The notes under the pieces were generated by a model, which saw only the letters and a list, made by a program, of their open reading frames with translations, was not told where the DNA came from and ran no database searches. Shown piece by piece: positions 56,284-63,361 of a DNA stretch of 64,000 nucleotides. This DNA is from Nitrospirota bacterium (GTDB lineage: Bacteria > Nitrospirota > UBA9217): NCBI GenBank assembly GCA_043731355.1, contig JAYTJE010000079.1, forward strand, positions 9,483-73,482, in the 5' to 3' direction. Made by a program: the position numbers and the translations under genes. Positions within the stretch are counted from its first letter, which is position 1. Each line of letters starts with the position of its first letter.

Positions 56284-56955
56284 CTATTTTTTACCCGGTA
56301 TCTTCTGTCCCAATCCATCAAAGAAAACCCCGGTCACAAAAGCGGCGAAGTGATCAATAGTCAGGTCCAGCTTCTTTCCGGTAACGTATTCAGCTATGGG
56401 ACGGTTAATGAAGCTCTGGATGACCATGCCGGTCAGGACCGAGATCGCGGTGGTCAAATCGACTTTTTTAAGTTCGCCCTTTTTTATGCCGTGCTTAAGG
56501 ATCTTGGCAAGATGTGCATGGCTGTGATGGAAAAAGTTATCCGCGAGCCACTTGAGGTTCTTGCCGCAGCAGGCGAATTCCATGGAAATGATCCTGCGGA
56601 TTTCCTCGTTGTTCTGCTGGAAGCGGATCATTTCTTCAACATACTTCTGTATCTTTTTACGGGCCGGCGCGTCCGTGGTGAAGAGCTCATGCTCCCAGAT
56701 GCGGTTGAACTCTTCAAAGGAATCGGCCAGAACTGCCCGGTACATCTCGACCTTGTCCGTAAAATGATAGTAGATCATGGCGTTGTTCACGCCCGCGGCT
56801 TCCGCCACCTCACGGACCGTTGCGCCCTCCAGGCCGCGCTGGGCAAAGAGACTGCGTGCAGCGTCAATGATCGACGAGCGTGTGCAGCACGCGGCCTGTT
56901 TTGATGCCGGGCGGCGTCCTGCTGTTTTTCTCTTTGGGGTCGTTTTTGTCGGCAT
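56284..56955 (-). CDS. TetR/AcrR-family transcriptional regulator
   Basis: Helix-turn-helix 'ATVREVAEAAGVNNAMIYYHF'. It is the first gene of the efflux operon. Confidence 0.85.
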   Translation of the reverse strand: MPTKTTPKRKTAGRRPASKQAACCTRSSIIDAARSLFAQRGLEGATVREVAEAAGVNNAMIYYHFTDKVEMYRAVLADSFEEFNRIWEHELFTTDAPARKKIQKYVEEMIRFQQNNEEIRRIISMEFACCGKNLKWLADNFFHHSHAHLAKILKHGIKKGELKKVDLTTAISVLTGMVIQSFINRPIAEYVTGKKLDLTIDHFAAFVTGVFFDGLGQKIPGKK

Positions 56956-57036
56956 GATTCTATTTAACTAACTGCTTAATTAATTGAAGCCGCATGATAC
57001 TGTGGGGAGGGTTTGTTGTCAAGAAAAAATTAGCGG

Positions 57037-57708
57037 TTAGTGTGCAGAAAGATGCATAGCCACAGCGTCAAAGGACCGGTAGCGATAGCCGATGGTCCCG
57101 ATGATCGGAACACCCGAGATTTCCTGTATGACGGCCGGACTGGTGGCCTCTGCGAGTCCCTTTCGCCCCTCTTGCCCGTCATTGATAACGACGCCGGCGA
57201 TAGTGATCCCCCGGTTTCGGAGCGCTTCGATCGTCAGGAGCGTATGGTTGATCGTCCCGAGGCCCGGCCGTGCGACGATCACCACCGGCAGGCCCATTGC
57301 TTCCGCCAGATCGAGGAAAAGATAGCCCTCTGCAAGCGGGACCATGATACCTCCTGCGCCTTCAACGATCATGAACTCGTGACGTTGAGATAGCGTTTTG
57401 AACGATTTGAGGATTTTCTCGGGATCGATCGGCTTCCGTTCAATTGCCGATGCCACAGAAGGCGCAACAGGAGATCTGAAGCGATAGGGATTGACCAGGG
57501 ACAGCGAATCGCGGACCGCGGCTGCGCGGACGAGAGCTGCCGCGTCGCGTGGTATGAGTTTGCCTGAACGCGATCCACAGCCGGTTTCCGCGGGCTTCAT
57601 GACACCTACTGCAACACCTGCTGAACGCAAGGCCTTTGCTATGCCGGTAGCGACATAGGTCTTTCCCACGCCAGTATCGGTCCCGGTGATAAATACGCCT
57701 TTAATCAT
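57037..57708 (-). CDS. bioD: Dethiobiotin synthetase
   Basis: 'GTDTGVGKT' P-loop. 223 aa. Confidence 0.85.
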   Translation of the reverse strand: MIKGVFITGTDTGVGKTYVATGIAKALRSAGVAVGVMKPAETGCGSRSGKLIPRDAAALVRAAAVRDSLSLVNPYRFRSPVAPSVASAIERKPIDPEKILKSFKTLSQRHEFMIVEGAGGIMVPLAEGYLFLDLAEAMGLPVVIVARPGLGTINHTLLTIEALRNRGITIAGVVINDGQEGRKGLAEATSPAVIQEISGVPIIGTIGYRYRSFDAVAMHLSAH

Positions 57709-57812
57709 TTGAGTAAGCCCTTACGTATAACAAATCGAAACCTTTCTCTTGGCGCGCTGCCATTGACGCGTCGCTGTGGTTGGTTGAAAGACACTGTGTC
57801 GGGAGAGATATC

Positions 57813-57840
57813 TTGACAAAAATTCGGCTCCACGTATAAT
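57813..57840 (+). promoter_or_regulatory. Consensus sigma-70 promoter (TTGACA-16-TATAAT) driving the small plus-strand ORF
   Basis: TTGACA at 57813-57818 and TATAAT at 57835-57840. An AAGGAG ribosome-binding site lies 9 nt before the ATG at 57874. Confidence 0.55.
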
Positions 57841-57873
57841 ATTCAAGCATCCATAAAGAAGGAGATTGGAATC

Positions 57874-58179
57874 ATGGAGATTACCGAGAATAAATTAAGA
57901 GAAATCCTTACTGAACAGCGAACTGAATTTCAGCATGTCGTCGGTATCTTTAAGGAAGATCTCGGATCAAAGATCAATCTCATTGCCGAGCAATACCAGG
58001 AAATAAAAACAACTCAAAAGATACAGACCGAAATGATCGGGTCCCTGATGGAGGACGTACAAATTATCAAGTCCGACGTTCAGTTTCTTAAAGTCGAGCT
58101 GAAAAGAAAAGTAGATTACGATGAATTCGACGCTCTCACTAAACGTGTTTCATTGCTCAAAGCAAAAAGCGGAAAATAA
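57874..58179 (+). CDS. Small coiled-coil protein of unknown function (101 aa), AT-rich, antisense to the biotin operon
   Basis: Strong promoter and ribosome-binding site, with a heptad-rich sequence. Confidence 0.5.
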   Translation: MEITENKLREILTEQRTEFQHVVGIFKEDLGSKINLIAEQYQEIKTTQKIQTEMIGSLMEDVQIIKSDVQFLKVELKRKVDYDEFDALTKRVSLLKAKSGK

Positions 58180-58196
58180 ACTCTAATCCGCTCCTG

Positions 58197-58493
58197 TTAT
58201 TGTTCGGGCTCTTCTTTCCCCATCTCTCGCCAGAGACGCAAGGTCTGCCTATCACCCGATTCGGCCAAACCACTTTCCAGCAGAAAGGCGAAAGCGCTGT
58301 CAGCTAAATTTTGCATCAGTTCGAGATACTCGTCCTGAGCAGCTTCGAAGGGCTTCGCGGTCTGTCCTTCTCTGTAGGCTGCGACGCTCAATTGAGGTAA
58401 AGCTAAAACTTCCGGACACCCTTCCAGACAGGGGAAATCACTTCCCTTAAGCGGCAGCTTATCAGTAAGGGTGAGCTTGGTCGTGACCGACAT
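58197..58493 (-). CDS. Hypothetical protein (98 aa) within the biotin cluster
   Basis: ORF only, with no recognisable motifs. It may be overlapped by the antisense transcript from the 57813 promoter. Confidence 0.3.
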   Translation of the reverse strand: MSVTTKLTLTDKLPLKGSDFPCLEGCPEVLALPQLSVAAYREGQTAKPFEAAQDEYLELMQNLADSAFAFLLESGLAESGDRQTLRLWREMGKEEPEQ

Positions 58494-58541
58494 TGCGGGT
58501 TTTCCTGCTGCATTTCATTAGTTCAAATTTTCGCATTCTCA

Positions 58542-58561
58542 CGGCGCGAAGCGCCGCTTTT
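58542..58561 (+). terminator. Short GC hairpin plus a T-tract (possible plus-strand terminator)
   Basis: CGGCGC-GAA-GCGCCG followed by CTTTT. Confidence 0.3.
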
Positions 58562-58668
58562 GGCGAGTCGTCGAGCCGAAGGTTGAACAAGTCATTATAG
58601 GTCCGAAATACAGTAGCATGGATTGTAGAGGTGGTCAATGCATTTACGATAGAAAGGCTGTCCTGAAA

Positions 58669-59409
58669 CTAAATCACCCTGCTGTCCAGATTGAACACCT
58701 GTCCGGATACATTGCGCATGAGCGAAAGGTGGTAGATAAAATCAGCGGTTTCTTGCGGGTCGGAGAACCTGCCGAGCGTATGCTCGCGTAGTATACGATC
58801 GTGTATCGCACCAGATATTGCAATTCCCATATCCGTCGGAAGATAGCCGGGCAGAACAGCGTTCACCTTGATGTTCTGAGCGCCGAGTTCCATTGCGCAG
58901 GACTTTGTCAGGCCGATAAGGCCTGCCTTGGATGCGGAATAGTTCGCCTGCCCTTCCCTGCCTTGCAGCCCAACAATGGACGCAATATTAATGATATGAC
59001 CGCCTGCTTTATTGTTGATGTGCGGCGCCGCTTCCCGGATACAGTGAAATACTCCGGTAAGGTTCGTCTCGACAACCCGGTCCCACTGTTCTTCCGACAT
59101 GCGAAGCAGCAGCCCGTCCTGGGCCACGCCTGCATTGTTCACGAGCACATCAACGGCTCCCCATTGTTTGAGCGTTTGCTCCACCATGGCTGTGACGTCC
59201 TGGGAGACCCGCACATCCGCTTTGATAATGCAGGCCTCGCCCCCCAGGGACCTGATCTCGTCACCGACCGCGTTGGCGGCCCGTTCGTTCTCGCGAAAGG
59301 CCACGACAACGCGGCATCCTGCTCTGCCAAAGGTCAGGGCGATGGCTTTCCCGAGTCCTCGAGAAGCGCCGGTAACGATAATGACCCGCTTGTCAATTGG
59401 CAGGGTCAT
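58669..59409 (-). CDS. SDR-family oxidoreductase (FabG-like 3-oxoacyl-ACP reductase)
   Basis: 'TGASRGLGKAIA' Rossmann motif and catalytic 'YSASKAG'. Confidence 0.85.
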   Translation of the reverse strand: MTLPIDKRVIIVTGASRGLGKAIALTFGRAGCRVVVAFRENERAANAVGDEIRSLGGEACIIKADVRVSQDVTAMVEQTLKQWGAVDVLVNNAGVAQDGLLLRMSEEQWDRVVETNLTGVFHCIREAAPHINNKAGGHIINIASIVGLQGREGQANYSASKAGLIGLTKSCAMELGAQNIKVNAVLPGYLPTDMGIAISGAIHDRILREHTLGRFSDPQETADFIYHLSLMRNVSGQVFNLDSRVI

Positions 59410-60566
59410 CCGGTGAACCCCTTCTGTTTCAGTTCGGCAAAAGCTGCCAGAGCAGCATCTATGTCAGCGGTGGAATGCGCGGCAGTTACCGTTGTCCTGA
59501 TCCGGGCCGCGCCTTCCGCCACGGTCGGCGGCCGTATGGCGGTTGCGAACACTTTGGAATCAAGAAGCGATGAAGAGGCCTGCATCGCTTTTTCAGAGGC
59601 TCCGATCATGATCGGAATGATCGGGGTTTCCGAGTCACGGGTATCGATGCCCATGGTTTTCAAGCCCTGGACGAACCGGGTCCTGTTCACCCAGAGCTTG
59701 TTTCTGCGCTCCGGTTCCTGCTCGACAATGTCGAGTGCCGCGAGAGACGCCGCGCAGACCGCGGGCGGCAAGGCAGTGCTGAAGATAAAACTGCGCGCGC
59801 TGTTCAGCAGGAAATCGATCAGGGTCTTGTCGCCCGAGATATATGCTCCAAAGGAGCCAAGCGCTTTGCCGAGTGTGCCCATCTGGATCGCGACACGGCC
59901 TTTGAGACCGAAATGCTCCACCGTCCCTCGACCTCCGGGACCAAGCACGCCGGTGGCATGGGCATCGTCCACCATCAGCATTGCATCATAGCGCTCGGCA
60001 AGCAGCACCAGGTCCGGCAGCGGGGCAATATCACCGTCCATGCTGAAAACGCCGTCTGTTACGATCAGCCTGCGGCGGGCAGGTGCGCTCTTTTTGAGAA
60101 GCTCTTCAAGATGATCAGCGTCCCGGTGCCGGTAAACATGCACCCGCGCCTTGCTCAGACGGCATCCGTCGATGATGCTGGCGTGATTCAGGCGGTCGCT
60201 CAGGATCACGTCGCCGGTTGTCGCCACGGCCGAAATGACGCCCGTGTTCGCGGCATAGCCTGAATTGAACAGGAGCGCGGCTTCTGTTCCTTTAAATTTC
60301 GCCAAACGTTCTTCCAACTGGCAATGGAGCGGCCCCGTGCCTGAAACGAGCCGGGAGGCGCCTGATCCAAAACCGTATTGCTCCATGGCAGCGGTTGCCG
60401 CCTGTTTTAATGCGGAGTGATTGGCGAGGCCGAGGTAGTCGTTTGAGCACATGAGGAGAACGCGCTGGTCATTGATGATCACATGAGCGCCGTCATCAGG
60501 ATTGGCAATCACAAGCCGTCTGCGAAGACCCTGCTGATCTATGTACGAAAGTTCCGGTTCAAACAT
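59406..60566 (-). CDS. bioF: 8-amino-7-oxononanoate synthase
   Basis: PLP-dependent class-II aminotransferase fold, 'SNDYLGL' and 'FSTAL'. 386 aa. Confidence 0.85.
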   Translation of the reverse strand: MFEPELSYIDQQGLRRRLVIANPDDGAHVIINDQRVLLMCSNDYLGLANHSALKQAATAAMEQYGFGSGASRLVSGTGPLHCQLEERLAKFKGTEAALLFNSGYAANTGVISAVATTGDVILSDRLNHASIIDGCRLSKARVHVYRHRDADHLEELLKKSAPARRRLIVTDGVFSMDGDIAPLPDLVLLAERYDAMLMVDDAHATGVLGPGGRGTVEHFGLKGRVAIQMGTLGKALGSFGAYISGDKTLIDFLLNSARSFIFSTALPPAVCAASLAALDIVEQEPERRNKLWVNRTRFVQGLKTMGIDTRDSETPIIPIMIGASEKAMQASSSLLDSKVFATAIRPPTVAEGAARIRTTVTAAHSTADIDAALAAFAELKQKGFTG

Positions 60567-61392
60567 GCGTATTCACACTCTTACGAATAAAAAGTTCCGG
60601 ATCCATGGACGCTGAACAGATGCCGACCCTGTCAATCAGCACACTCGATTTTTCAAGATAAAGAGTCAAGGCGTCCAGGCCAGGCTGCTCATGGTTCACA
60701 AAAAAAGCCCTTCCACCATGCATGTCGCCCTTTTGTTTCAAAAAAGGAAAACGCACATAGCCAAGGCCCGGCGCGGCAACATACCCGGCACTATAATCAG
60801 GTTCATCGGACCAGCAGAGCTCAGCCACCATTCCCGGCGCATGGGCCACTTTGGTCGCGAGAGCAAGCGCCTCCGTTGTCCGGTGATGGGTAAGCCCCAG
60901 AGCAGTGAGTTGCCGCATCGCGCTTTGCAGGGCTTCCCCGGTCCAATCGAACCGGGAGGCACGGATACCGCGCTCCTGGTCAGGTTCAAGCCGTTCTCCG
61001 GTCTCCGCATCCATGATCATGGCGCCGCGCATGTTCGCGCCCGAAGGTGCTGCGCCTGTGCTGATGAGTTTCAGAGCAACAGCAATGGCCTGGTCTGAAA
61101 CCCCTGCGAGATGAAGGACCCGGGCGGCATACTCCCTTCCGGATCGATGATCGGGTGCTTCCAGGGTTGTAACCTCAAGGCTGGTGAGGTATCCGATCGA
61201 AGCAGGGTCAAGGACATCGACGCTCACGACGATCCGGGCCGGCTCGCATTCCCGGTCCCGCGCCCGTGCAACGAGTTCGCGCACCGTCGCATCGATCCGG
61301 TCGTGTGAAACGATCCGCTCTGCGCCGGAAATATGGCGTTCCCGCAACGAGGCGCGCATACGGATGCTGTACAGGCTGTTCTGGTTGTTCAT
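60559..61392 (-). CDS. bioW: 6-carboxyhexanoate-CoA ligase (pimeloyl-CoA synthetase)
   Basis: 'YSIRMRAS...HISGAERI' and 'EALALATKVAHAPGMVAELCWSDEPDYSAGYVA' track the B. subtilis BioW sequence as I recall it. Confidence 0.8.
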   Translation of the reverse strand: MNNQNSLYSIRMRASLRERHISGAERIVSHDRIDATVRELVARARDRECEPARIVVSVDVLDPASIGYLTSLEVTTLEAPDHRSGREYAARVLHLAGVSDQAIAVALKLISTGAAPSGANMRGAMIMDAETGERLEPDQERGIRASRFDWTGEALQSAMRQLTALGLTHHRTTEALALATKVAHAPGMVAELCWSDEPDYSAGYVAAPGLGYVRFPFLKQKGDMHGGRAFFVNHEQPGLDALTLYLEKSSVLIDRVGICSASMDPELFIRKSVNTHV

Positions 61393-61396
61393 GGGG

Positions 61397-62380
61397 TCAG
61401 GGATGCAGTCCGAGGTCTTTAAGCATTTGCAGATCGTCAGCGGGGTCCAGGCCGGTTGTGGTGAGGTAATTGCCGATCAGAAAACCATCAGCTCCGGCCA
61501 GGAATATAAGCGGATGAAGCGATCGCAAAGCCGTTCCCCTGCCTGCGCAGATGCGTATCTGTTTGGCAGGCAGCAGCAGCCTGAACAAGGCGATAGAAAG
61601 GAGCGCCTCCCTGGGCGTAATGGCCGTGACCTTCTCCATCGGCGTGCCCACGATCGGCATGAGGAAGTTAAGCGGCACGGAATCCACATCAGCCTCCCTG
61701 AGTGCCAGCGCCATTCTGATCCGGTCCTCCATGGTCTCGCCCATGCCGAGTATGCCGCCGCTGCAGAGGGACAGTCCTAACGCGCGCCCCTGCTGGAGGA
61801 GCTCGATCCGTTCGTCAAAGGTATGGCTGGTGCAGATGCGAGGAAAAAACTCGCGTGAGGTCTCGATATTGTGATGGTAGCGGTGCAAACCAGCGCTTTT
61901 CAGATACGCGAGCTGCTGTTTTGACAGTGTGCCGAGCGTGGCGCAGGGTGAAAGGCCGGCATCACGCACCCGTCCGATGCCCAGAGCGATGTTTTTGAGG
62001 TCCTCGTCCGTATCTATCCCGCGGCCGCTTGTGACAATGCAGAAGCGCTTGGCGCCGTTTTTCTTTGCGCTCTCCGCGGCTTTGCCCATCTGGTCAACGG
62101 AGATGAGCGGATAGACCGGAGCGTCCGTGGAATGATGCGATGATTGAGCGCAGAAAGAGCAGTTCTCGCCGCAGGCTCCGGATTTGGCGTTCACAATAGA
62201 ACAGATGTCAACGTCGTCGCCATGAAAGCGTTCGCGCACCCGGGTGGCTGTTGCGAAAAGGTCCGCGAGATCCCCGCTTGAGGCCTGGGAAAGCGTCACC
62301 GCATCATGATAGTCGACGGATTCTGCTTTTAATGCCACGGCTCCCGCACGGGCAAGGGTTTCTTTGAAGGAAGTTTCCAT
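61397..62380 (-). CDS. bioB: Biotin synthase
   Basis: Radical-SAM motif 'CGENCSFCAQS' and the downstream Fe-S Cys residues. Confidence 0.9.
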   Translation of the reverse strand: METSFKETLARAGAVALKAESVDYHDAVTLSQASSGDLADLFATATRVRERFHGDDVDICSIVNAKSGACGENCSFCAQSSHHSTDAPVYPLISVDQMGKAAESAKKNGAKRFCIVTSGRGIDTDEDLKNIALGIGRVRDAGLSPCATLGTLSKQQLAYLKSAGLHRYHHNIETSREFFPRICTSHTFDERIELLQQGRALGLSLCSGGILGMGETMEDRIRMALALREADVDSVPLNFLMPIVGTPMEKVTAITPREALLSIALFRLLLPAKQIRICAGRGTALRSLHPLIFLAGADGFLIGNYLTTTGLDPADDLQMLKDLGLHP

Positions 62381-62408
62381 GGAAGGGTTTTACCTTAATG
62401 AAGGGTCA

Positions 62409-62441
62409 TTGTCAACCGAAATGTGGAAAACAGGTTGACAA
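62409..62441. promoter_or_regulatory. BirA operator (bioO): TTGTCAACC-N15-GGTTGACAA
   Basis: Perfect 9-bp inverted repeat 29 nt upstream of the bioB ATG. It matches the bacterial BirA-box consensus TTGTAAACC-N14/15-GGTTTACAA. Confidence 0.65.
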
Positions 62442-62506
62442 GAGGGAAAGGCAGGAGATAAGGCAGGTGTTTAGGCTGAAGACTGAAGGGTAATACTACT
62501 TCAACT

Positions 62507-63361
62507 TCAGCCTTCAGCCTTCCCACCTTCTACCTGCCTAATATTAATCCCCTGCTTGCAGACCGGCTCTTTATTCGCGATGCGCCGCTTGAGGATGGCA
62601 AGATTGTGCTGATATTTCGTATTGTCAAAGCTCCAGGACGATTTATGCCAGAGGTGAAAAATAATGGCCAGTCCCCGCACGGAGCGCAAACGCTTTCCCT
62701 GATTCAGCGCGCGGATGCCGATATCATTATCTTCGATGGAGCCGTCGAGGAACTCTTCATCACATCCGTTGATGGCGATAAACAGCTCTTTGTACAGGCT
62801 GAAGTTGCATCCCCATACCCCGTCATTGTAGATCCGGTCCCGATGCATTGCCTGCCTGAACCAGGGATTCTTTATCTGGATCGATTCAGCGACCCTGCGC
62901 GACTGTTTTCTGGCGGAGTCCCACAAAAGGCGGAAATTGAAACGGTCCATGACTTTTCCGCGTTCCAGCAGTTTTGCAGTAAGGTGTTCCCCGATCTCGA
63001 CGCGTTTGCCGCTCAAGACCTTATCCGGATCGCTGTAATCGCGGTGGGCTTTGACAAAATGGCGGTGGGCCATGCAGTCGCCGTCAATGAAGATCAGATA
63101 GTCGCCCGTGGCCTGGCGGACCGTTTCATTCAGGATCCGGGGTTTTCTGAAGCCGATATCTTCCTGCCACACGTGCTTGATGGGGAAACGATCTTTGAGC
63201 GAGGCCTGGAGTTCATGCACCATGTCCCTCGTCTCCTGGCCGCTGCCGTCGTCGGCAATCAGCACTTCCGTGGGCAGAACGCTCTGTTTGGCAAGGCTCA
63301 AGAGACAAAGTTTCAGCGCCTTGGGGCGGTTATAGGTCGGTACGATAACAGATATGTTCAT
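62507..63361 (-). CDS. Family-2 glycosyltransferase
   Basis: 'MNISVIVPTYNRP' and 'DDGS' ... 'DGD' motifs. The track ORF starts earlier, at 63439. Confidence 0.8.
   Translation of the reverse strand: MNISVIVPTYNRPKALKLCLLSLAKQSVLPTEVLIADDGSGQETRDMVHELQASLKDRFPIKHVWQEDIGFRKPRILNETVRQATGDYLIFIDGDCMAHRHFVKAHRDYSDPDKVLSGKRVEIGEHLTAKLLERGKVMDRFNFRLLWDSARKQSRRVAESIQIKNPWFRQAMHRDRIYNDGVWGCNFSLYKELFIAINGCDEEFLDGSIEDNDIGIRALNQGKRLRSVRGLAIIFHLWHKSSWSFDNTKYQHNLAILKRRIANKEPVCKQGINIRQVEGGKAEG

Follow-up and report, generated by a model that had tools for sequence, protein, structure and literature searches.

A probable insertion hot spot in a BirA-type biotin operon of Nitrospirota, occupied by an autonomous small-gene unit and a gene remnant

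The window analysed here is a stretch of 64,000 nucleotides from a Nitrospirota bacterium (GenBank assembly GCA_043731355.1, contig JAYTJE010000079.1, positions 9,483 to 73,482). It carries a biotin (bio) operon on the minus strand that is interrupted by a small gene in the opposite orientation. We consider it likely that this is a BirA-controlled operon, bioB-bioW-bioF-SDR-bioD (SDR, short-chain dehydrogenase/reductase), in which an insertion hot spot between SDR and bioD holds an 859-bp mosaic. The mosaic would be made up of a solo hairpin-containing element (U2), the dead remnant of a CxxCxxCC gene and a self-contained small-gene unit on the opposite strand, whose antisense position would be accidental. 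The small gene itself appears to be incidental cargo, neither a member of the operon nor an evolved antisense regulator.

The genes of the bio operon were named using Pfam and NCBIfam models. The order on the minus strand is bioB-bioW-bioF-SDR, with bioD following after a 960-bp gap (window positions 57037–62441). The features, with model scores and their cut-offs, are as follows.

62409–62441, no strand assigned: BirA-type operator, the perfect palindrome TTGTCAACC-N15-GGTTGACAA, 28 nt from the bioB ATG (62380).
61397–62380, minus strand: bioB, biotin synthase, with Radical_SAM and BATS domains (TIGR00433, 386 bits; cut-off 225).
60559–61392, minus strand: bioW, 6-carboxyhexanoate (pimelate)-CoA ligase (PF03744, 252 bits, cut-off 25; NF002360, 243 bits, cut-off 226; TIGR01204, 204 bits, cut-off 194).
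59406–60566, minus strand: bioF (TIGR00858, 504 bits; cut-off 426).
58669–59409, minus strand: FabG-like SDR, adh_short (FabG subfamily NF009466, 229 bits; cut-off 222).
57037–57708, minus strand: bioD, dethiobiotin synthase, intact (TIGR00347, 188 bits; cut-off 83).

The bioW product passed the curated cut-offs of all three models of the BioW family (PF03744, NF002360 and TIGR01204), in agreement with the BioW route proposed in the first-pass annotation of this DNA. The bioW and bioF genes overlap by 8 nt and bioF and SDR by 4 nt, and the ring-assembly enzymes BioF, BioD and BioB are all encoded in the operon. The first-pass annotation had also counted a 98-aa open reading frame (ORF) between SDR and bioD as a gene of the operon; the bio genes and the SDR were upheld by the Pfam and NCBIfam models, while the 98-aa ORF was found to be a remnant and not a member.

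The BirA operator that had been proposed upstream of bioB was confirmed. It has the form expected of BirA operators, an inverted repeat of TTGTAAACC-like half-sites about 14–16 nt apart, and the match is unique in the 64 kb even with 3 mismatches allowed (chance expectation 0.01). The same pattern was found 5′ of bioB in seven related loci (L028, L031, L033, L035, L037, L040 and L045) and, with one mismatch, upstream of bioB in L022. Inspection of the sequence revealed TTGACA within the bioB-proximal half-site (62415–62410, minus strand) and, 17 nt further on, TAAAAC (62392–62387), which lies 6 nt before the bioB ATG. BirA would then repress a promoter with its −35 box inside this half-site. 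No second BirA operator was found before bioD, even with 3 mismatches allowed, and no birA was detected among the window ORFs of suitable size that were scanned. An Rfam scan of 56900–62700 found no riboswitch or small RNA, the single sub-threshold microRNA match being meaningless. The bioB start itself, 6 nt after TAAAAC, has no Shine–Dalgarno (SD) sequence (cccttccATG; 62380–62415, minus strand) and the layout in L022 is identical; translation of bioB may start on a leaderless mRNA.

The gene order was compared across a set of about 50 related loci; a BioW scan gave 29 related metagenome loci, and two more long contigs were reached via the SDR. The order bioB-bioW-bioF-SDR-bioD was found in every related locus of sufficient length as well as in the two SDR-found contigs. 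The SDR gene adjoins bioD directly in L025, L028, L033, L038–L040, L042, L043, L053 and L054, the SDR stop and bioD start overlapping (ATGA) in L028, L038, L040, L042 and L043 and being separated by 6–81 nt elsewhere. This arrangement appears to be the ancestral Nitrospirota operon, and the ATGA overlap together with the conserved position suggests that the SDR is an old, translationally coupled member of it. A gene for an S-adenosylmethionine (SAM) hydroxide adenosyltransferase (PF01887/PF20257) was seen one to two genes past bioD in relatives with an intact operon (L025, L033, L038, L040, L053 and L054), in L053 directly after bioD on the same strand; it is followed by miaB-like genes, and manC-manB are found upstream of bioB. 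This is probably the conserved backbone order.

The closest relatives, L050 (SDR 83 %, bioD 89 % identical) and L052 (SDR 78 %, bioD 86 %), have kept both flanks, with GT2-bioBWF-SDR ahead of the junction and bioD-TetR-OEP-RND beyond it, as in the window. Each of the two has an insert between SDR and bioD. That of L050 is 2.3 kb and includes a lipoprotein-like gene and a PBP_like_2 gene, while that of L052 is 3.9 kb and includes Hexapep, Y1 transposase and hypothetical genes. The three inserts have no sequence in common. The window, L050 and L052 are collinear for approximately 70 nt past the SDR stop (TTGACC-N17-TACTGT-ATTTCGRACC, ...TACTGTATTTCGRACC) and then split at the same nucleotide, 58599/58600. 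In pairwise terms, homology past the SDR extends to 58600 with L052, and to 58651 plus 58622–58585 with L050. Homology between the window and L052 resumes at 57740, leaving 32 nt to the bioD ATG. The interval can be divided as follows.

58600–58668, minus strand: native spacer after SDR, common to L050 and L052; the insert begins right behind it.
57741–58599, no strand assigned: window-specific insert of 859 bp, delimited by divergence from and realignment with L050 and L052.
57709–57740, minus strand: native bioD leader of 32 nt, common to L052.

The same point of divergence and the presence of unrelated inserts in three genomes point to the SDR/bioD junction as an insertion hot spot in the clade of the window. 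The earlier suggestion that the small gene is a recently inserted foreign gene was borne out, as SDR is followed directly by bioD in at least ten relatives, the two closest have different inserts, and copies of the small gene with 95–98 % identity occur elsewhere. The comparison of syntenic bio loci, which had been proposed as the check, likewise identified it as an insertion and not as a conserved operon member. A single ENA record, ERZ25039513, holds both a bio locus free of the 101-aa gene (L052) and, elsewhere, a 95 % copy of that gene (L049). The Y1 transposase gene in the insert of L052 (IS200/IS605- or RAYT-type) is found at L052:12488–13339, and RAYT-like genes were seen near copies of the small gene in L003 and L006.

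The source is evidently a metagenome-assembled genome and GC content falls sharply across the insert, as might be seen if the junctions were artefacts of a chimeric assembly. This is extremely improbable. An independent Logan contig (L001, from SRR22198286) is 100 % identical to the window over OMP-TetR-bioD, the 101-aa gene and the beginning of the remnant, and its exact copy of the bioD/small gene/remnant junctions argues against a chimera. Both flanks are collinear with L050 and L052, and the exact SDR protein is on record from NCBI and Logan (P0146).

Read on the plus strand, the insert starts at 57741 with 13 nt, followed by a first hairpin element (U1), the promoter, ORF and tail of the small-gene unit to 58200, the remnant in reverse orientation, U2 and a final 8 nt, ending at 58599. 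Its parts are listed below.

57754–58200, plus strand: autonomous small-gene unit, comprising U1, promoter, SD sequence, ORF and a conserved tail of approximately 20 nt.
57754–57797, plus strand: U1, a hairpin-containing element of approximately 50 nt, upstream of the small-gene promoter.
57813–57840, plus strand: promoter TTGACA-16-TATAAT, scan score 12/12.
57859–57864, plus strand: SD sequence AAGGAG.
57874–58179, plus strand: 101-aa coiled-coil ORF, ATG at 57874.
58185–58506, minus strand: CxxCxxCC-gene remnant (pseudogene), in which ORF 58197–58493 is the 98-aa ORF.
58541–58591, plus strand: U2, a solo copy of the hairpin element, recognised by alignment with U1, L004, L006 and L049; it includes the hairpin at 58542–58561.

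All parts of the small gene that had been described previously are present: an AT-rich 101-aa ORF antisense to the operon, the TTGACA-16-TATAAT promoter and the AAGGAG ribosome-binding site. The promoter is the only perfect TTGACA-N16–18-TATAAT in the 64-kb window, with none found in 100 shuffles, and the GC content over the small gene is 0.39 compared with about 0.59–0.61 over the bio genes. The search for relatives of the 101-aa protein returned 145 close homologues, which belonged without exception to Nitrospirota or to unnamed metagenome contigs, and a profile search gave 861 cluster representatives at 50 % identity (E≤1e-3), one named member being from Candidatus Paceibacterota. Among seven DNA copies, 20, 13 and 66 of 101 codon positions were variable at the first, second and third base, respectively. 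This third-position bias indicates purifying selection on the protein, and the small gene appears to be a genuine, selected protein gene.

No known family was found for the 101-aa product in Pfam, NCBIfam, PHROGs or PADLOC, where only sub-threshold coiled-coil cross-matches (DUF1664, KxDL) were seen, and no structural match was found in a PDB sequence search (E≥0.88) or a Foldseek search with the model (E≥3.9). The AlphaFold (AF2) model consists of a helix at residues 5–79 and another at 82–100 (predicted local distance difference test score 90). Members of the family range from 87 to 190 aa, and alignments showed that length varies mainly through SHTE(M/T)L-like heptads gained or lost in the central part of the helix, with both the N-terminal (MEITENKLKEIL..QR.E(F/Y)Q) and the C-terminal (IIK.D..F.K..LK.KVDYDEF..L.KRV..LE.K) ends conserved. 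The family looks like a rod of variable length, and our best guess is an abundant cytoplasmic coiled-coil oligomer.

The position of the small gene is not conserved. In 12 loci of GTDB species representatives, no bio genes were found within 8 kb, and the neighbours differ at each locus. Unrelated contexts were also seen for the copy with 98 % identity (L046/L047) and for those with 95 % (L049, P0005). DNA likeness (93 % to L046) is limited to 57783–58200, that is 30–50 nt 5′ of the −35 box, the promoter, the ORF and the 20-nt tail, and homology among the copies generally spans about 57763/57783–58200. Promoters scoring at least 10/12 were present in all 15 copies examined, even in distant paralogues with unalignable promoter DNA, and a private strong promoter is thus a trait of the family. 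These data suggest a family scattered through unrelated places in Nitrospirota genomes.

In L022, a close relative of the window (bioB 89 %, GT2 90 % identical), a paralogue of the 101-aa gene with 52 % identity was observed, flanked by GT2 and the BirA operator (L022:5330–5780). It has its own TTGACA-17-TAAAAT promoter and lies upstream of bioB, in the same direction. The small-gene family is here paired with a bio locus for a second, independent time, in another position and in the other orientation.

The 98-aa ORF next to the small-gene unit has 25 homologues, mostly called at 157–170 aa, which reach approximately 85 residues past its C-terminus. When the loci were read in all frames, the true parent gene was found to be approximately 290 aa, with a CxxCxxCC Cys-cluster domain at its N-terminus (PF03692; 33 bits in the full-length homologue of L015, cut-off 23). 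The remnant has kept the start and approximately 15 codons (58506–58448, matching L014 9262–9320), then jumps in frame over the Cys-cluster domain of approximately 100 residues (58447–58185, matching L014 9617–9879) and ends with ...EEPEQ precisely at the junction with the small-gene unit. The 98-aa ORF has no Pfam match, the PF03692 segment and the C-terminal ~85 residues being missing, and no C-terminal piece of the CxxCxxCC gene was found in any frame on the bioD side of the small gene. Intact relatives adjoin toxin–antitoxin, TetR or sigma-factor genes and were never found in bio operons. The 98-aa ORF is a dead remnant with an internal deletion and a 3′ truncation and not an operon gene. 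In L014 (9262–10150) and L016 (10001–10540), the CxxCxxCC gene is split by frameshifts into two or three called ORFs, likely due to long-read assembly errors or representing further pseudogenes; such copies account for the inconsistent lengths of the database homologues.

U1 and U2 are imperfect direct copies, only about 60 % alike, of an element of approximately 50 nt with a GC hairpin, and they bracket the insert. A U element also precedes the promoters of small-gene family members in L004, L006 and L049, and a partial U-like sequence is present at the same insert boundary in L050. U could be a recombination site or a travelling terminator or insulator. Within the window U does not behave as a general repeat of the repetitive extragenic palindrome kind, the other matches there being unrelated coding sequence. 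One extension of our reading, compatible with it, is that the small-gene unit is mobile and enters as a cassette through recombination at U, by an att-like or a hairpin/Y1-transposase-type mechanism. The U copies 13 nt and 8 nt inside the two insert boundaries, the U elements ahead of promoters in other loci, the 93 % DNA identity of copies with unrelated flanks, and the Y1 and RAYT-like genes described above would all be consistent with this.

We nevertheless regard a mobile cassette as rather unlikely. Beyond the limited likeness of U1 and U2, no second U was found downstream of the other small-gene copies, no transposase is present in the insert and no recombinase within or beside the unit, and the surroundings of both unit and insert showed no attC-like core sites, terminal inverted repeats or target duplications, only short matches of chance quality. 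The tail of the unit and the remnant overlap by approximately 16 nt that resemble both parents, and this microhomology makes their junction look like the product of microhomology-mediated illegitimate joining, which needs no dedicated machinery. Neither the unit nor the insert has the terminal repeats, target-site duplication and transposase of an insertion sequence or miniature inverted-repeat transposable element. The unit also differs from an integron cassette, in that homology among the copies stops approximately 20 nt past the stop codon, with no palindrome in common, and each copy has its own promoter (an integrase was not searched for). Separately, tRNA genes were considered as integration sites next to small-gene copies and none was found; an apparent tRNA-like end in L046 was not confirmed.

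The insert leaves bioD without a coupled start, and we propose that bioD is now reached by read-through from the BirA-controlled bioB promoter. No strong minus-strand terminator lies between SDR and bioD, the one weak candidate being at 58428–58411, and the region immediately 5′ of bioD contained no promoter that reached 9/12 in the scan. One further feature was found in the native spacer by inspection.

58638–58633 and 58615–58610, minus strand: promoter-like TTGACC-17-TACTGT directed towards bioD (8/12, below the scan threshold).

This element is common to L050 and L052 and might also help to transcribe bioD. Read-through would cross the insert and meet head-on the transcription from the 12/12 promoter. 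The scan found no terminator at the small-gene stop codon. The hairpin at 58542–58561 within U2 had been proposed to end the antisense transcript; it does have a 6-bp GC stem, but only four T follow it and it fails the terminator scan. The small-gene transcript would either stop at this weak hairpin, approximately 365 nt downstream, or continue into SDR as antisense RNA. Plus-strand polymerases would run for at least approximately 700 nt against the operon, and collision together with antisense pairing should cut bioD expression, so that transcriptional interference probably lowers bioD output. We propose that the loss is tolerated because very little biotin is needed.

It had been suggested that the small gene is an antisense modulator. 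In its strongest form, the small gene or its transcript would be a cis-antisense regulator that evolved to tune bioD (and SDR), perhaps in response to some signal. A perfect consensus promoter does face the operon, the lack of a terminator at the stop means that the transcript must overlap that of the operon, and a distant paralogue lies beside the BirA operator in L022. The arrangement is, however, absent from all related bio loci, with SDR and bioD adjacent or overlapping in at least ten and other inserts present in the two closest, and near-identical copies with the same promoter are found in unrelated contexts. The L022 paralogue is not antisense but co-directional with and upstream of bioB, and selection on the ORF at the protein level indicates that the selected product of the unit is the protein. 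An evolved regulator is therefore very improbable. As the arrangement is found in no relative, its effects are better read as a tolerated side-effect of an accidental insertion than as regulatory design.

Several points weigh against this reading of the locus. A minus-strand promoter site scoring 9/12 is present inside the small gene (58091–58063), and this site or a promoter of an unrecognised type could drive bioD independently. Read-through, interference and the weakness of the terminator are all inferred from the sequence. The paralogue beside bioB in L022 could hint at a non-random link of the family to bio loci. Differential loss from a larger ancestral region is conceivable in place of repeated insertion, though the three inserts have nothing in common. 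Lastly, neither inverted repeats nor target duplications were found that would point to a mechanism of insertion, and the 101-aa protein gave no Pfam, PHROG, PADLOC, PDB or fold match.

Further observations were made at the ends of the operon and within it. A long inverted repeat, GGCTGAAGACTGAAGG...CTTCAGCCTTCAGCC, at 62457–62539 extends across the end of GT2 (whose stop is at 62507) and the spacer ahead of the operator, and is probably the GT2 terminator. Directly past the bioD stop, a promoter-like site TTGACA-17-TATCAT (56994–57022, minus strand, 11/12) would fit a separate promoter for the downstream TetR and OEP/RND efflux genes, in which case transcription of these genes would not need bioD. 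Identity along the operon is mosaic, with BioW only 65 % identical to that of L050 and L052 compared with 83–90 % for BioB and BioF. In L017, BioB is 91 % identical and BioF 72 %. The gap between bioB and bioW is 200–300 nt in L050 and L052 and 4 nt in the window. The mosaic identity and the difference in gap suggest recombination or replacement inside the bio operon.

The SDR that precedes the insert is of more general interest. It was found between bioF and bioD in at least 14 loci, and more than 100 homologues at 61–83 % identity were found, all of those with inspected context being in the same operon. The SDR falls below the cut-off of the FabG equivalog model TIGR01830 (250.9 bits; cut-off 297.75) while passing the subfamily model NF009466, and the solved structures closest to it are those of FabGs and of a 3R-hydroxyacyl-CoA dehydrogenase. 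It appears to be a FabG paralogue that is not demonstrably the housekeeping FabG, and a long-standing operon member with a biotin-related role.

The operon had also been described as lacking bioA. An Escherichia coli BioA probe, valid in that it scores 917 bits on the BioA equivalog model, was used in tblastn searches and found no bioA or other class-III aminotransferase in the 64-kb window, nor any match in the 53 loci. The window ORFs of suitable size were instead SLT/LysM, MacB, OEP, TPR, M48 peptidase, Usp, HlyD and cation efflux proteins, with no bioA or birA among them. No class-III aminotransferase was found within 7–10 kb of the operon in about 20 long loci, so an adjacent bioA, which would have changed the picture, is present neither in the window nor in the flanks of the relatives. 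The absence of bioA holds for the window and the loci of the relatives and does not stand as a statement on the genome.

This raises the question of whether the SDR could replace BioA by converting 7-keto-8-aminopelargonate (KAPA) to 7,8-diaminopelargonate (DAPA) through NAD(P)H-dependent reductive amination, as a non-homologous enzyme comparable to BioU. The gene sits exactly between those for step 2 (bioF) and step 4 (bioD) and is coupled to both, by the 4-nt bioF overlap in the window and the ATGA bioD overlap in relatives, no aminotransferase gene is nearby, and the keto group of KAPA is a normal target of such reductases. On the other hand, bioA is commonly encoded away from the bio operon in other bacteria, such as Pseudomonas with its bioBFHCD operon, and its absence here is known for loci and not for whole genomes. 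Both its sequence and the closest structures mark the SDR as a classical FabG-type ketoreductase, and reduction of a ketone gives an alcohol and not an amine. We therefore rate a BioA replacement as improbable; if true, the SDR would be the second non-homologous replacement of BioA after BioU.

In operons of the bioBFHCD type, bioA is found elsewhere and the pimelate moiety is made by the products of the genes that separate bioF from bioD. This precedent suits a FabG paralogue better and favours a role for the SDR in pimelate supply, where it would most likely carry out ketoacyl reduction in making the pimelate moiety activated by BioW. We put the chances that this is its function at about even. 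According to a 2024 review that also cites BioU as a new pathway enzyme, there is no organism in which the origin of the pimelate used by BioW is known (PMC11089781). Our search of the literature turned up nothing relevant on an SDR in BioW-type operons or on bioW in Nitrospirota.

As a regulatory curiosity, the arrangement is ordinary and its analysis mostly clarifying: no annotation should assign the antisense small gene or the 98-aa 'gene' to biotin metabolism or to regulation. What remains of interest is the conserved SDR, together with the unnamed coiled-coil family. A BioW operon with an embedded, coupled FabG paralogue and no local bioA, kept across a broad set of Nitrospirota, is a candidate for an unknown step in biotin synthesis, which would be the provision of pimelate to BioW or, with lower probability, the reaction of BioA. 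The 101-aa family, with 861 representatives, near-consensus promoters and unfixed positions, points to an abundant protein that moves by a route not previously described.

In Bacillus subtilis, ytbQ is an extra gene for an NAD(P)-binding-fold protein, of unknown role, that is co-transcribed with the bio genes. The operon there, named bioWAFDBI(-ytbQ) (PMC11089781), resembles that of the window in the activation of pimelate by BioW, the use of BioF, BioD and BioB, the BirA-type inverted repeat over the promoter and the extra NAD(P)-binding-fold gene. The operon of the window differs in the absence of bioA and bioI, in the order B-W-F-SDR-D and in its interruption by an insert, and its SDR, unlike the trailing ytbQ, is of the classical FabG type, embedded and translationally coupled. 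Like the bioBFHCD type, it leaves out bioA as the one ring-assembly gene, though its pimelate genes would be bioW and SDR and not bioC and bioH.

BioU was reportedly described by Sakaki and colleagues in 2020 as a non-homologous replacement for BioA in cyanobacteria, and offers a precedent for an NAD(P)-dependent enzyme taking the KAPA-to-DAPA step in genomes without bioA. It is not known to be an SDR/FabG-type protein; the closest solved relatives of the SDR in the window are FabGs. The bio clusters of Desulfovibrio are said, in work of Rodionov and colleagues from 2004, to hold fatty-acid-synthesis-like genes, including fabG, predicted to make the pimelate moiety. The window shares with them a FabG-like reductase inside a bio cluster, but has a single SDR together with BioW in place of their set of acyl carrier protein, FabF, FabG and dehydratase without BioW.

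The small-gene unit is comparable to phage morons and other autonomous promoter–ORF units, being short and AT-rich, with a strong promoter of its own, variable positions and no mobility genes. It differs from phage morons in having no PHROG match, no phage context in its flanks and no terminator of its own, and in belonging to a chromosomal family that is widespread in uncultured bacteria. As in cases of interference between convergent promoters, the orientation of the unit is expected to interfere with the transcript of its host operon.

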